A stretch of DNA of 64,000 nt, taken from the NCBI GenBank assembly GCA_027623195.1, contig JAQBUT010000004.1, positions 1 through 64,000 of the forward strand, written 5' to 3'. The notes under the pieces were generated by a model. The model was not told the origin of the DNA. It saw nothing but the letters and a program-made list of their open reading frames with translations, and made no database searches. Source of the stretch: Chloroflexota bacterium. Lineage in GTDB: Bacteria; Chloroflexota; Dehalococcoidia; Lucifugimonadales; JADFKI01. A program made the translations under genes and the position numbers. Shown in pieces: positions 57,582 through 63,462 of the stretch (positions within the stretch are counted from its first letter, which is position 1; each line of letters opens with the position of its first letter).

Positions 57582-58727
57582 ATGACCCCATCCAAACAAT
57601 CCGAAAGGCACGACTTTACGGCGCACCTAACTCGTTTTTCCCGGGTGCTGCGTGGGCATGGGTTTCTGATTGGCCCGCTGGAAACGGCGGACGTCATCAA
57701 AGCGATGAGCGCCGTGGATATGATGGACCGAGGTCGTGTTTACTGGGCACTGCGTAGCCTACTTGTCTCACGACAGGACGAGTTCCTCACATACGACATG
57801 CTCTTCGAAAAATTTTGGAACTTCGAGCCCATGCCGACTCGAGGTCCCTCCAGCGAAGGCTCCAAGAAGCTTGAAGAGTCGATGACCCTTCAGCGCAGAC
57901 CAAGATCGCTGTTCGGGGTGAGCAACGACCAGCAGTCCGAAGATATAGCCATCCAGGAAATGCGGGTCGGAGCCAGCGACGTGGAGCTAAACGCCAAGAA
58001 AGACTTTACCGTGATCCGCGCAGATGAGTTCTCGGAGCTTTCCCGCATCGCCGCGCGAATGGTGAAGGCCCTGGCCTCCCGCCCCGGACGCCGACGCAAG
58101 CGTCACAAGCGCAAAGGCACCCCCGACCTGCGTGGCGCAATGCGACTGAACCTCTCCTCCGGTGGCGACCCTATCATCGTGCCCCGACGCAAGCGCGTAC
58201 CCAGAGTCCCACGCCTGCTGGTGCTGCTGGACGTTAGCGGGTCCATGGAGCGGCACGTCCAGCTACTTCTGCAGTTGGCCTACGCAGTTTCCCAGCAGAC
58301 CAGGCGTGTGGAGGCCTTCGTATTCAGCACAAAGGTTACGCGGGTAACACGAGAGCTTGCCATGCCATCATTTACCGATGCCCTGAAGCGCATTGGCGAT
58401 GAGGCATCCCACTGGTCTGGCGGCACGCGCATTGGCGAGGCTCTGTCCACCGTGAACACAGACTTCGACTATCTGCTGGACAAGCACACAACCGTGTTCC
58501 TACTCAGCGACGGTTGGGACACCGGGGACCCCGACCAACTAGCATCCCAAATTCGGCGCATGCAGCGGCGCGTACGAAGCTTCGTGTGGCTAAACCCGCT
58601 AATGGGAACCCAGGACTACCAGCCTCTGACCCGAAGCCTGCAATCGGCCGAGCCATACGTGGACCACTTCGCCTCGGCCATGGACGTAGCGCATCTGCGG
58701 CGGCTACCCCAGTTACTACGCTCTTGA
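57582..58727 (+). CDS. CoxE-like VWA domain protein
   Basis: DVSGSM MIDAS, WSGGTRIG, SDGWD, WLNP. Confidence 0.9.
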   Translation: MTPSKQSERHDFTAHLTRFSRVLRGHGFLIGPLETADVIKAMSAVDMMDRGRVYWALRSLLVSRQDEFLTYDMLFEKFWNFEPMPTRGPSSEGSKKLEESMTLQRRPRSLFGVSNDQQSEDIAIQEMRVGASDVELNAKKDFTVIRADEFSELSRIAARMVKALASRPGRRRKRHKRKGTPDLRGAMRLNLSSGGDPIIVPRRKRVPRVPRLLVLLDVSGSMERHVQLLLQLAYAVSQQTRRVEAFVFSTKVTRVTRELAMPSFTDALKRIGDEASHWSGGTRIGEALSTVNTDFDYLLDKHTTVFLLSDGWDTGDPDQLASQIRRMQRRVRSFVWLNPLMGTQDYQPLTRSLQSAEPYVDHFASAMDVAHLRRLPQLLRS

Positions 58728-58984: not shown

Positions 58985-59647
58985 ATGATGAACGCCGTCA
59001 ACATAAGGCCTTTGCGATTGCCCAGGGTGGTGTGGCCCCCAGAGGCAATAAACGCAGACCTTCACGTTGACGATTTCGTCCTTAGCCCCCAGGGACTAAA
59101 GACCTCATCGATGAGCCTTGGCATGATCCTTCCCTTGGCTGCGGCGCTTGCCTTTTCTGTGCTGATCGTATTCCTCATGGTCGAGTTCCGCCACGTCATC
59201 GCGGACCTTGGACGTTGGGGTTACCTGGGCGTATTTTTCATCGAGCTAGCCAACAGCGCGACTATCTTGTTCCCGACGGCTGGACAGTCGTATACCTTTG
59301 CGCTGGGAGTAACCCTCAACCCTCTTATGATCGGTCTGATCGGCGGCATAGGTTCCGCTATTGGCGAGTTGACCGGCTACGCAGTGGGCGCAAAGACGGG
59401 CCAGCGATTCAAGGGCGGGCGCATCTTTAACAAGCTCCAGAGATTCACAATGCGTTGGGGAGGCTTTTCGCTATTCTTGTTCGCTACGATACCCGGACCT
59501 TTTGAAGTGGCAGGTCTGTGGGCCGGCACTGTCCGGTATCCATTAGCACGCTTCTTCGTGTTCGTCGCTATCGGCAAGATACTAAAGGTTACCGCCTTCG
59601 CTCTGGCAGGTTACTACAGCCTCACCTGGCTGCTAGGCGGAAGCTAA
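58985..59647 (+). CDS. DedA/VTT (SNARE-associated) membrane protein
   Basis: GYLGVF, G...GELTGY..G, F....GK..K. Confidence 0.85.
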   Translation: MMNAVNIRPLRLPRVVWPPEAINADLHVDDFVLSPQGLKTSSMSLGMILPLAAALAFSVLIVFLMVEFRHVIADLGRWGYLGVFFIELANSATILFPTAGQSYTFALGVTLNPLMIGLIGGIGSAIGELTGYAVGAKTGQRFKGGRIFNKLQRFTMRWGGFSLFLFATIPGPFEVAGLWAGTVRYPLARFFVFVAIGKILKVTAFALAGYYSLTWLLGGS

Positions 59648-59782
59648 GTTTTCTGCCCAACTATGTCCTGCGCCCTCCGAACCACTTCAGGACACATAGC
59701 CCCAACTGAATTCCTGGATAGTATCTCGGAAACCGGCATGTGTTAGCATAACGCCTCATAATCCCTTCTCTCGAAGGAAACC

Positions 59783-61381
59783 ATACCAGAAATCGTTGTC
59801 GCCTTCGGCCTCATCGCCACCGTACTAATCATCAAAGCCTTGGCCTCGGGGCTGGTAGAACGCTCCATACTTTCGTTCCCCTTCCTATTCATAGCGTTAG
59901 GCTTTGTACTTGGAGAGCGAGGCGTCGGCCTGCTGAATCTGGGACCGCACAGCGCCATCCTCGAGATCGTTGCCACACTAACGCTGGCCCTGGTGTTATT
60001 CCTAGACGCCGTAAAACTGCAGGTCAAGGAACTGGGCAAACGTTGGCTCATTCCTTTTCTGATTCTGGTGCCAGGCACAGCGCTCATCATAATACTGGGG
60101 GCTCTGCCTCTGGCCTTGATTTTGGGTTTTGGCTGGGTCATGGCTTTCATAGGCGGCGCGCTTCTTGCCTCCACGGATCCTGTCGTATTACGCGATATCC
60201 TCCGCGACAACCGTATACCGAGGCCTGTGCGGCAAATCCTCAAGTTAGAAGGCGGCACGAACGACCTGGTGGTCTTGCCCGTCGTGCTGATTCTTATAGC
60301 GATAACCACCGCGCAAGCAGGAGGCCCGGAACAGTGGGCGCCATTTCTGATCCAACTGCTGATTCTAGGCCCGCTGATGGGAGCAGTCGTAGGCGTCGTA
60401 GGCGCATGGTGCATGTCCCGGGTGGACGAGAAGATGGGCATTCGGCTGGAGCATCAGGCGCTGTTTGGGATTGGCCTCGTGCTGGCTGCGTACGCGTCGG
60501 CAACCATAGTTGGCGGTGATGGCTTCCTGGGAGCATTCTTCGCGGGCATAGCCGTCGTAATGCTTAACCAGAAGCTTTGCACCTGCTTCCTGGACTACGG
60601 CGAGGTCACATCCGAAATGATGATGATGTTGGCCTTCGTCCTGTTCGGCGCTGTCCTGTCTGGCATCATCGACACAGTCCCGCTGGTACCGGCCCTAATC
60701 CTGGCTGCACTGGTAATCTTCGTGATTCGACCGTCCGTCATTAACCTTGTTCTGGTCAAGGCTAATATAAGCTGGGAGGCACGCGCCTTCATTAGCTGGT
60801 TCGGCCCAAGAGGGCTAAATTCGCTGCTGCTTGCTTTGCTCGTGGTCCAGGCGGCGGTGCCCGGCGCTGAACTGCTGCTGGCAACCGTTGGCATCGTGGC
60901 TCTGGCATCAGTGGTGATACACGGAGCATCCGCTTCACCTATAACGGCATGGTACGGCCGTAAAGCGTCAGAGGAAACGCTGGCGGAGGAGCGCCAGAGC
61001 ACGGTCGTGGGACTGTTCAGACCGGAAGAGCCAGAGCTGATCCGCATTACGCCGGACGAGCTTAACGAGATGATTTCCGGCGAGGACTCTCCTGTGATAT
61101 TGGACGTGCGCTCTAGATCGACCTTCGAGCACGATGACGCAGAGATTCCTAGAAGCGTGCGAGTCCTGCCTGATCAAGTCCTCGAATGGGCCAGCGATGA
61201 GTCGAATCGGGGCCTCGCTGACAGGCTGGTGGTCGCGTACTGCACTTGACCGGATGAGGCGACTAGCGCCCGTGTGGCGCGACATCTCATTTCCGAAGGA
61301 ATAAAGGCGGTCGCACTGGAGGGTGGATTCAACGCTTGGCGGGCCAAGTACCCGGTGAGCCCATTGACTGCAGTGGCCTAG
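59783..61381 (+). CDS. Cation:proton antiporter (CPA1/NhaP-like) fused to a C-terminal rhodanese domain; probable selenoprotein (Sec at TGA 61247-61249)
   Basis: ASTDPV, EGG.ND and WFGPRG antiporter motifs; ILDVR...VVAYCT-TGA-PDEATSARVA..L...G......LEGGFNAW continues in frame to TAG 61379. TM1 starts at ATA 59783 after GAAGGA. Confidence 0.85.
61250..61295 (+). promoter_or_regulatory. Candidate bacterial SECIS element
   Basis: GCGCC-CGTGT-GGCGC apical hairpin with the loop 21 nt after UGA; lower stem ATGAG/CTCAT and CGGA/TCCG. Confidence 0.65.
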
Positions 61382-61488
61382 CCAATTTCCGTCCGATTCC
61401 CTCTACACACACACCATGTTCCTACCTGACGCAAACTGGCATATGGGTGTAGAATTAGGTATGCGATACGCCCCCGGAGGCCACCCAA

Positions 61489-63462
61489 CTGCCTGAATTC
61501 GAGATAGTCTCAGACTTTGTTCCCACTGGAGACCAGCCCGAAGCCATCAACAGGACAGTCGAGGGCATCAACAAGGGAATGACACATCAGACGTTGTTGG
61601 GTGTAACCGGCAGCGGCAAGACGTTTACCATGGCCTGCATCGTTGAAAAGGTGCAGCGTCCGACTCTTGTCCTAGTCCACAACAAGACGCTGGCAGCCCA
61701 ACTAGCCACGGAGTTCAAGGAGTTCTTCCCGAACAACGCCGTTGAGTACTTCGTCAGCTACTACGACTACTACCAGCCAGAGGCGTACGTTCCTCGCAGC
61801 GATACCTATATCGAGAAGGACGCCGACGTTAACGAGGAGTTGGACAAGCTCCGCCACGCCGCAACACGCGGTCTTCTTACTCGACGCGACGTGCTTATAG
61901 TGGCCTCTGTCTCCTGCATCTTCGGCCTGGGATCGCCAGAGGAGTACCAGAGCTTCGTCGCCTACATACGCAAAGGTGAGCAGCGCAACCGCGGCCGCCT
62001 GATGCGCCAACTTGTAGACATGCAGTACGAGAGAAATGACATGGACTTCTCCAGGGGCAAGTTCCGCATACGCGGCGACACCATGGAGATCCTGCCCGCG
62101 TACGACGAAGTAGGCGTACGCATCGAGTTCTGGGGCGACCAGGTAGACCGCATCATGATGGTGGACCCCCTCACCGGAGAGGTGTTGGGCGAACGAGATG
62201 ATATAGAGATATACCCTGCTAAGCACTTCGTGACCTCCCAGGAGAAGATGGACCTGGCGATGGTGGACATCGAGGAGGAGCTGCAGGAGCGTGTAGCGCT
62301 GTTTAAGGAACAGGGCAAGCCGCTTGAGGCTGAACGGATCGAATCCCGCACTCGCTACGACATAGAGATGATGCGTGAAACAGGCTACTGCGGAGGAGTC
62401 GAGAACTACTCTCGCCACCTGGCACGACGCGAGGCGGGTAGCTCACCGTACACCCTGCTCGACTACTTCCCTGAAGACTACCTGCTGTTCGTCGATGAGT
62501 CCCACATGACACTGCCCCAGGTACGTGGGATGTTCTTTGGAGACAAATCTCGGAAAGAAACCCTGGTGGACTTCGGATTCCGTCTCCCTTCAGCGCTGGA
62601 CAACCGGCCGCTTAATTTCAGCGAGTTCGAGGAGCGAGTCAATCAGGCCGTATACGTCTCTGCGACGCCCGGCCCATACGAGTATGAGCACTCACAGGCA
62701 ATCATCCCGCAGGTTATTCGGCCAACTGGGCTGATCGATCCCCTGATAGAGGTGAAGCCCACCAAAGGCCAGATCGACGACCTGCTATACCAGATAAGAA
62801 TGCGCGTGGAAAAGGGCCAACGATGCCTGGTAACTACGCTGACGAAGCGTATGTCCGAAGAGTTGGCGGATTTCTTACGCGAGATGGGCGTCAAGGTCCA
62901 CTACCTGCACTCGGAAATCGACACACTGGAACGCAGCGAGATCCTCCGAGACCTGCGTCTGGGCGTATACGATGTCGTGGTTGGCATCAACCTGCTCCGG
63001 GAAGGCTTGGACCTGCCGGAAGTTAGCCTCGTCGCCATACTTGACGCAGATAAAGAGGGCTACCTCAGGTCGCAGACTGCTCTGACGCAGACGGTAGGAC
63101 GCGCAGCGCGACACGTCGAAGGCCACGTCATCATGTACGCAGACGTTGTCACCGGCTCGATGAAGCGCACTATCGACGAGACTGATCGGCGACGGACCAT
63201 ACAGGAGGCCCATAACCTCGAACACGGCATAACGCCGCAGGGCATTCAAAAAACAATCCACGACATAACCGAGCGTGTAAAGGCCATTGCTGAAACAAGG
63301 ACGCCATACATCACTCAGAGAGATCTGCCAAAGGACGATATCCTGCGGCTAATCAAGGACCTGGAATCCCAGATGAAGACGGCCGCCAGGAACCTGGAGT
63401 TCGAAAAAGCCTCACTGTTGAGGGACCAGATAATAGACCTTCGCAAGGTAGTCGTCGACTGA
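61489..63462 (+). CDS. uvrB: Excinuclease ABC subunit B
   Basis: [48 protein letters not shown] start 61489 with GGAGG RBS. Confidence 0.97.

Follow-up and report, generated by a model that had tools for sequence, protein, structure and literature searches.

The locus described here raises the question of whether a UGA codon in the middle of a protein domain ends the protein or is read as an amino acid. It lies on the forward strand of a 64,000-nucleotide (nt) stretch of a Chloroflexota genome (contig JAQBUT010000004.1, positions 1 to 64,000; hereafter, the window) and comprises a gene for a predicted cation/proton antiporter of the NhaP/CPA1 type that ends in a rhodanese domain. A first-pass annotation of the window had read this gene as a hidden selenoprotein, i.e., an antiporter joined to a rhodanese domain with selenocysteine (Sec), and comparisons of the codon, the decoding machinery, the downstream frame and a nearby hairpin agree with this core reading. 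Based on these comparisons, we consider it very probable (roughly 0.88) that the gene is an intact selenoprotein gene and that its UGA, at 61247-61249, is decoded as selenocysteine.

Results

A single UGA lies within an otherwise complete antiporter-rhodanese frame

With translation table 11, the open reading frame finishes ...VVAYCT at the TGA, and the same frame goes on for 43 further codons up to the TAG at 61379-61381 (PDEATSARVARHLISEGIKAVALEGGFNAWRAKYPVSPLTAVA), the immediate context being ...VVAYCT-TGA-PDEATSARVARHL...; both the coordinates and the translation given in the first-pass annotation are thereby reproduced. The codon at 61247-61249 is the only in-frame TGA of the frame 59783..61381 (+) and stands inside the active-site loop of the C-terminal rhodanese domain. 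In the read-through product, Pfam recognizes Na_H_Exchanger (PF00999) at residues 16-390 (E 6e-37, 127.8 bits, gathering cut-off 26.2) and Rhodanese (PF00581) at residues 423-521 (E 2.5e-9). The latter match covers profile positions 1-101 of 102, as expected from the earlier claim that read-through finishes the rhodanese fold, and its completeness requires the TGA to be read through, since sequence on both sides of the codon contributes. Public gene calls cut the product at the UGA, so that a "cation:proton antiporter" of 484-488 residues is reported, whose rhodanese domain is broken. The features of the locus are collected in Table 1.

Table 1. Positions of the gene and its predicted elements in the window.
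Feature	Position	Strand	Description
Whole gene, predicted NhaP/CPA1 antiporter-rhodanese selenoprotein	59783..61381	+	532 codons; ATA at the start position of the family; single in-frame TGA; stop TAG 61379-61381
Start region	59774..59785	+	AAGGAA Shine-Dalgarno-like run at 59774-59779, then ATA 59783-59785; relatives have ATG or GTG
Antiporter domain, residues 16-390	59828..60952	+	13 predicted transmembrane (TM) helices; motifs ASTDP (T131, D132) and TND (N160, D161); Pfam PF00999
C266-x-C268 of LCxCF	60578..60586	+	Predicted cytoplasmic start of TM10
Linker L400..F412	60980..61018	+	Joins TM13 to the rhodanese domain; consensus TLxEERESTAAGLF
Rhodanese domain, residues 423-521	61049..61345	+	PF00581; NF041203 75.9 bits; PDB 3iwh, 2hhg, 6mxv; complete only with TGA read-through
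C487-T488-U489	61241..61249	+	TGC ACT TGA; TGA, the probable Sec codon, falls on the canonical catalytic residue of the loop
Conserved SECIS-like core GCGCC-CGUGU-GGCGC	61266..61280	+	Stem starts 16 nt, loop 21 nt after the UGA

The UGA codon is conserved in several phyla

The codon was compared in a species-level collection with one genome per species (80 named loci out of 289 relatives), in 41 relative genomes, in a class-wide sample of 401 genomes and in the 120 best protein-database homologues. The first-pass annotation had proposed to align homologues and see whether they carry Cys or TGA here; they carry both, as TGA stands at this position in 65 and TGC or TGT in 14 of the 80 species loci, while L124, the match of which covers residues 1-395 only, is undecided. 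Sec forms occur in Dehalococcoidia/SAR202, Chloroflexia, Thermomicrobiales, Caldilineae, Herpetosiphonaceae, Roseiflexaceae, Ardenticatenales, Rubrobacter and other Actinomycetota, Acidimicrobiia and Armatimonadota, and the hosts of Cys forms are chiefly Anaerolineae and Caldilineae. Among the 41 relative genomes, the orthologue has TGA in G001, G002, G004 and G031 and TGT in G027. All ten full-length orthologues of the class-wide sample (49-62% identity) contain exactly one TGA, at this codon, and an eleventh (G336) is frameshifted, with the TGA present.

Protein databases hold the same signal in truncated form, with 112 of the 120 homologues stopping exactly at ...YC[TSADNG]; the remaining eight are four full-length Cys forms (motifs YCTC(H/R)NE and YCACIDE among the database Cys forms), two Ser forms (YCSS...) and two uninformative entries. 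Where these homologues are named, they are called "cation:proton antiporter" or "NhaP-type antiporter". The motif thus reads YCTU in the gene studied here and YC[TSADNG]U in its relatives. On a FastTree phylogeny of 80 rows (L124 excluded), the Cys forms are nested among the Sec forms with at least 4-5 changes of state, in a tree that is unrooted and from which the direction of the Sec/Cys change is unreadable.

These counts bear on a rival explanation of the TGA by nonsense mutation, sequencing error or gene decay. Decay would fit the ATA that replaces the family's ATG start in this copy, and damaged relatives do exist, i.e., G001 with two TAG codons and a deletion, and the frameshifted G336. 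However, the TGA is shared by 65 of 80 species loci in several phyla and implied by 112 of 120 homologues. An independent population with about 99.4% identity has the TGA unaltered, and it is present in all four sequencing runs examined, which come from two studies. Together with a downstream frame that is open and under coding constraint (see below), this makes decay or error extremely improbable.

Some single loci depart from the common pattern. L077, from a Chloroflexota metagenome-assembled genome, reads Y-Y-A-U, without the Cys at -2, and keeps the TGA and the hairpin. L063 and L027 (the latter from G001) share a deletion of about five codons in the rhodanese domain, 3' of the hairpin. 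L093, a Cys form labelled "Bacteroidetes bacterium", groups tightly with Anaerolineae on the tree, which suggests a mis-binned contig or a transfer.

The frame beyond the UGA varies as coding sequence does

Of the 65 Sec-form loci, 63 have no stop for 38-63 codons beyond the UGA, and in the other two the frame runs off the locus. In codons +12 to +39 of 66 Sec forms (window included), non-consensus bases amount to 0.28/0.25/0.49 at codon positions 1/2/3, and this third-position excess is the pattern expected of coding sequence. Moreover, the downstream motifs EATSAR...L.GG..AW..YPVEP agree with those of the Cys forms. The first-pass annotation had made its reading depend on a conserved downstream frame, and the open frame in 63 of 65 loci, with its coding-like variation, is in line with that reading.

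The same data speak to the view that the UGA is a true stop; the antiporter would then end at 488 residues, and the sequence beyond it would be maintained for another reason, e.g., as an RNA element or a separate peptide. Bacterial decoding of UGA as Sec competes with termination, and some of the product probably ends at the UGA, above all under selenium shortage; TGA also serves as an ordinary stop elsewhere in the window. However, a stop at this codon would split the rhodanese fold at its active-site loop, and the Pfam match depends on the two halves together. Cys-form homologues run through as single proteins, the third-position variation fits translation in the same frame, and there is no start codon or ribosome site 3' of the TGA. 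Hence, we regard termination as the gene's normal outcome as very unlikely.

A SECIS-like hairpin follows the UGA in Sec forms

Just 3' of the UGA, where bacterial selenocysteine insertion sequence (SECIS) elements lie, a hairpin is formed by GCGCC (61266-61270), the loop CGTGT (61271-61275) and GGCGC (61276-61280). All five stem pairs are present in 62 of the 65 Sec forms (the other three have four of five) versus 3 of the 14 Cys forms, and full pairing is absent from most Cys forms even where the same S-A-R-V-A peptide is encoded. A SECIS-like hairpin is therefore conserved at the right distance. The description of the hairpin in the first-pass annotation holds for the position, for the loop 21 nt after the UGA and for the GC stem. 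The outer ATGAG/CTCAT stem (61254-61258 / 61286-61290) is present in the window but is not conserved, being paired in 44.5% across sequences, no better than in shuffles; RNAalifold, run on 14 sequences, recovered the 5-bp stem alone.

In the alignment of 66 sequences, 99.1% of the cells of the GC stem are paired, a value reached by none of 500 shuffles, and slid registers gave at most 63%. Covariation consists of C-G to U-A (three times) and G-C to A-U (once), so that two pairs show compensatory change, along with 14 wobble changes. The loop consensus is CGNGY. Across the whole gene in 12 orthologues, the start points of the top twelve 12-codon intervals for synonymous-codon identity lie within -4 to +7 relative to the UGA, with identities of 0.63-0.70 versus 0.42 gene-wide, and codon choice at the hairpin is nearly fixed (Ser AGC in 12/12, Arg CGT in 11/12 and Ala GCC in 11/11 orthologues). 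Judged from this codon use, the synonymous constraint at the hairpin is one that acts on the RNA and not on the protein.

The genome encodes the selenocysteine machinery

The first-pass annotation had pointed to selA, selB, selC and selD as genes to look for, and all four are present in this genome (an assembly of 65 contigs, 87% complete). Profile searches returned selA (554 bits), selB (311 bits, plus a C-terminal piece) and selD (385 bits), all above their cut-offs, and tRNA-Sec was found with 63 bits in Rfam and called by ARAGORN as tRNA-SeC with anticodon TCA. The selD gene (G000:C46:6726-7649 (-), locus L011) likewise contains a TGA in frame (..SCAG-TGA-ASKFSPKDL..), and the 9-bp hairpin that comes after it has GUG in its loop, as does the hairpin studied here; selD is a second selenoprotein gene of the same genome. 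Among the genomes tested, selA scored above the cut-off in 5/5 with the Sec form (three phyla) and in 3/5 with the Cys form. TGA terminates 11 of the 37 long frames of the window, from which it follows that it is not reassigned genome-wide.

The UGA might, instead, be read by a standard tRNA (a Trp, Cys or Arg near-cognate) or be otherwise recoded, without selenium, and the identity of the inserted residue is indeed drawn from sequence comparison. Against this stand the full Sec pathway and the Sec-type selD of the genome, together with the presence of selA in all five Sec-form genomes tested. Cys is the usual counterpart of Sec, and the homologous residue is Cys; conservation of the hairpin at SECIS distance is confined to forms with the TGA. 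Consequently, decoding without selenium appears very improbable, and we retain decoding as Sec.

The antiporter domain, its LCxCF motif and the linker

An AlphaFold2 model from a 47-row alignment (predicted local distance difference test score, pLDDT, 85.5; predicted template-modelling score 0.76) shows 13 membrane helices and an alpha/beta rhodanese domain, with the linker between them (406-417) modelled at low confidence. The best Foldseek matches were PaNhaP (4cz8; target-normalised TM-score 0.75-0.77) and MjNhaP1 (4czb; 0.77), with E 1.5e-11, followed by SOS1, SLC9C1, NHE1 and KefC. D132 and D161 are invariant and N160 is at least 90% conserved; we take ASTDP and TND to be the ion-site motifs, which are said to define electroneutral CPA1 exchange. 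From the CPA1/NhaP profile, the fold and these motifs, cation/proton exchange is the predicted activity.

K/R-rich loops at about 79-88, 141-150, 213-222, 316-334 and after 392 all fall on one side of the membrane, and by the positive-inside rule, together with the known NhaP topology, the rhodanese domain is probably cytoplasmic. The first-pass annotation had also mentioned a CTC motif in a transporter loop. The motif is real (C266-T-C268), but instead of a long loop it occupies the predicted beginning of TM10 on the cytoplasmic side, its membrane side following from the modelled helix order and the positive-inside rule. C266 is Cys in 120/120 and C268 in 118/120 homologues; in 12 distant NhaP homologues, the matches of which stop short of the rhodanese part, the aligned place never holds a Cys. 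Both LCxCF and the nearly invariant linker are marks of the fusion clade. In the linker, which was modelled at a pLDDT of about 51, L400, E402, E403, R404, E405, T407, G410, L411 and F412 are invariant or at least 90% conserved.

The rhodanese active site

In gapless alignment, the catalytic Cys of 3iwh and of 6mxv falls on U489, and the loop reads U-P-D-E-A-T-S; in the model, C487-T-U489 lies between strand 483-486 and helix 490-504 (strand-CxU-helix). The first-pass annotation stated that related rhodaneses carry YCxCPNE here, and a [YF]CxC...[ST] loop is indeed found in 67 of the 150 best representatives. Rhodaneses of the YCxCPxE type occur alone (about 110-125 residues), on NhaP cores and on VTT/DedA domains. 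Hence, the proposed CxU rhodanese on an antiporter stands with respect to architecture and recoding, with the refinement that the catalytic position is probably that of Sec itself and not of Cys487.

The start of the gene and its neighbourhood

The first-pass annotation placed the start of the gene at 59783, where the codon is ATA and not a canonical start. The next canonical start is TTG at 59840, 19 codons into TM1, and its use would drop 19 TM1 residues. Contigs of an independent, nearly identical population have G at 59785, which gives ATG, and the probable source runs have A there at a depth of 33.6x.

A VTT/DedA-family gene lies directly upstream (58985-59647 (+), 135 nt away; 220 residues; PF09335, 50.9 bits); this adjacency recurs in 3 of the 80 loci, all close relatives. 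The locus is further flanked by a gene for a VWA/CoxE-like protein (57582-58727 (+); PF05762, E 7e-51) and by uvrB (61462-63462 (+)). The frame from 61462 yields the full UvrB domain set, which places the true start of uvrB upstream of the listed ATG at 61579.

Discussion

We herein describe a gene in which UGA would be decoded by tRNA-Sec and SelB, both being recruited by the GCGCC-CGUGU-GGCGC hairpin 16 nt downstream. The product, of about 532 residues, would be a Na+(K+)/H+ antiporter of the NhaP/CPA1 type with 13 helices, joined by a conserved linker to a rhodanese domain in the cytoplasm, in which Sec489 would occupy the catalytic-Cys position, with Cys487 two residues before it.

Several observations weigh against this interpretation. 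The hairpin is the most exposed of its supports: the conserved stem has 5 bp and is near invariant, so that covariation, with four double-change cells, is thin and, judged from the alignment, among the weakest links. The fold of the single sequence is unexceptional (z -1.21), the support for the hairpin resting on genome comparison; no Rfam family matched it, the best hit being the chance-level Ref68 (15 bits, E 0.32); and the S-A-R-V-A codons account for some of the pairing, the three Cys forms with all five pairs included. With respect to the catalytic position, the 2hhg alignment puts the catalytic Cys on C487, with a 2-residue gap. Because of the ATA start, the expression of this genome's copy may be weak, or a non-canonical start may be used. 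Finally, no conserved neighbour genes were found in the 80 loci beyond the closest relatives.

The domain itself has known relatives. The best-scoring specific NCBIfam model for it is NF041203 ("rhodanese_LYCAU"; E 2e-21), which shares the fold and the C-x-U motif with Sec second, and which appears as "form 3" in the review PMC13188914 and as "COG0607 form 2" in the review PMC9312934. However, NF041203 is a standalone protein with a profile of 126 positions, whereas here the domain takes up residues 423-521 at the C-terminus of a 532-residue, 13-TM antiporter; moreover, with 75.9 bits (protein) or 72.4 bits (DNA) against a cut-off of 115 bits, it is a relative of that family and not a member. 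A profile search of this genome found no standalone NF041203 member above the cut-off. Precedents for the combination with membrane proteins are also at hand. PMC13188914 lists TsoB (NF045694), a rhodanese/DsbD fusion-like selenoprotein, along with further selenoproteins predicted to be transporters; TsoB is a precedent for a Sec rhodanese fused to a membrane protein and the others for Sec in transport, but TsoB has a DsbD-like partner instead of CPA1, two Sec residues and the motif UxxxxU. Fusions of VTT/DedA domains with rhodanese (PF09335 + PF00581) are mentioned in PMC10127716, where their role is called unclear. These membrane proteins end in a rhodanese with the same YCxCPxE-type loop (P0141, P0154, P0165, P0199) but differ in the membrane domain, and the examples found here are Cys forms.

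Among antiporters, the archaeal PaNhaP and MjNhaP1 have the same 13-helix fold and keep the TDP and ND motifs, but share only 18-20% identity and are without the C-terminal domain and LCxCF. KefC (9emb), SOS1, NHE1 and SLC9C1, all among the fold matches, likewise join a transporter core to a cytoplasmic domain; their regulatory domains (KTN/RCK, CNBD and others), however, are unrelated to rhodanese and contain no Sec. KefC, a CPA2 antiporter, is gated by glutathione and its adducts and so comes closest as a parallel for thiol-based control.

Thus, the CxU rhodanese selenoprotein is already known in standalone form, and it is the antiporter fusion alone that is uncatalogued in the lists searched. 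NCBIfam release 20.0 holds no specific model for an antiporter-rhodanese fusion, and literature searches for selenoprotein-rhodanese-antiporter, selenocysteine-"proton antiporter", selenocysteine-SAR202 and rhodanese-NhaP returned no relevant paper, the first of them as judged by titles and abstracts. Supplements aside, neither "antiporter" nor "exchanger" occurs in PMC13188914 or PMC2398784, and PMC9312934 and PMC1088965 do not contain the word "antiporter". The first-pass annotation knew of no characterised protein with this architecture, and no selenoprotein list or search covered, within the same scope, mentions an antiporter.

What would a Sec-rhodanese do on an antiporter? The C-x-U pair, at a helix N-terminus and in the rhodanese catalytic site, would be suited to form a selenenylsulfide or an Se-S(H) adduct. 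By analogy with KefC, we tentatively propose that C-x-U is a redox- or persulfide-reactive switch (selenenylsulfide or Se-S adduct), the state of which may be relayed via the linker and tune ion/proton exchange, with LCxCF of TM10 as a candidate partner. A sensor that tunes the antiporter is favoured because the linker is invariant and the rhodanese domain lies on the same side as LCxCF. This regulatory model has its own difficulty, as Ser/Thr forms at 489 keep LCxCF and two Cys forms are without C268, so that LCxCF and CxU do not co-vary; a correlated loss of the two was sought among homologues and none was found. Complex prediction for the transporter and rhodanese parts of natural Cys- and Ser-form homologues gave scores of 0.00 and 0.00, which count neither way.

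A less probable but plausible alternative is that the Sec-rhodanese acts as a membrane-anchored sulfur/selenium transferase or reductase for a transport-linked substrate and does not regulate the antiporter. Rhodanese domains are usually sulfurtransferases, and Sec is placed at the catalytic position of a rhodanese fold; furthermore, the same CxC-type rhodanese is also found standalone and on VTT/DedA domains, the latter being the fusions noted in PMC10127716. The loop, however, is acidic (U-P-D/N-E-A-T-S), no sulfur- or selenium-metabolism genes are conserved as neighbours, and the invariant linker suggests coupling to the transporter. The anion-binding loops of sulfurtransferases are unlike such an acidic loop.

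It is also conceivable, although unlikely, that C487/U489 and the adjacent Asp/Glu, possibly with the cysteines of LCxCF, form a thiophilic site for the sensing or handling of a metal such as Cu, Zn or Hg. Two invariant CxC-type motifs with acidic flanks (LCDCF and CxUPDE) on the same predicted membrane face would suit such a site, and several predicted selenoprotein transporters are tied to metal resistance in PMC13188914. Nevertheless, the Ser and Thr forms at 489 keep LCxCF, and the neighbours examined include no metal-resistance genes. We therefore favour the sensor over the tethered transferase, and the latter over the metal site.

If the selenoprotein reading is right, a widespread selenoprotein has been missed in selenoproteome counts of abundant marine and soil lineages, since annotation stops at the UGA. 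It would extend the use of Sec to a secondary ion transporter and tie selenium chemistry to pH and ion homeostasis. The near-invariant 15-nt hairpin and the YCxU context offer a simple signature with which the antiporter-rhodanese family can be found and re-annotated. More speculatively, and with some doubt, we suggest that this may be the first ion antiporter selenoprotein, whose Sec-rhodanese may sense redox state, sulfane sulfur or selenium supply and gate Na+(K+)/H+ exchange via the linker, possibly with LCxCF. If true, such a system would belong to the standard repertoire of SAR202/Dehalococcoidia in the ocean and of many Chloroflexota and Actinomycetota in soil, and would have escaped annotation.

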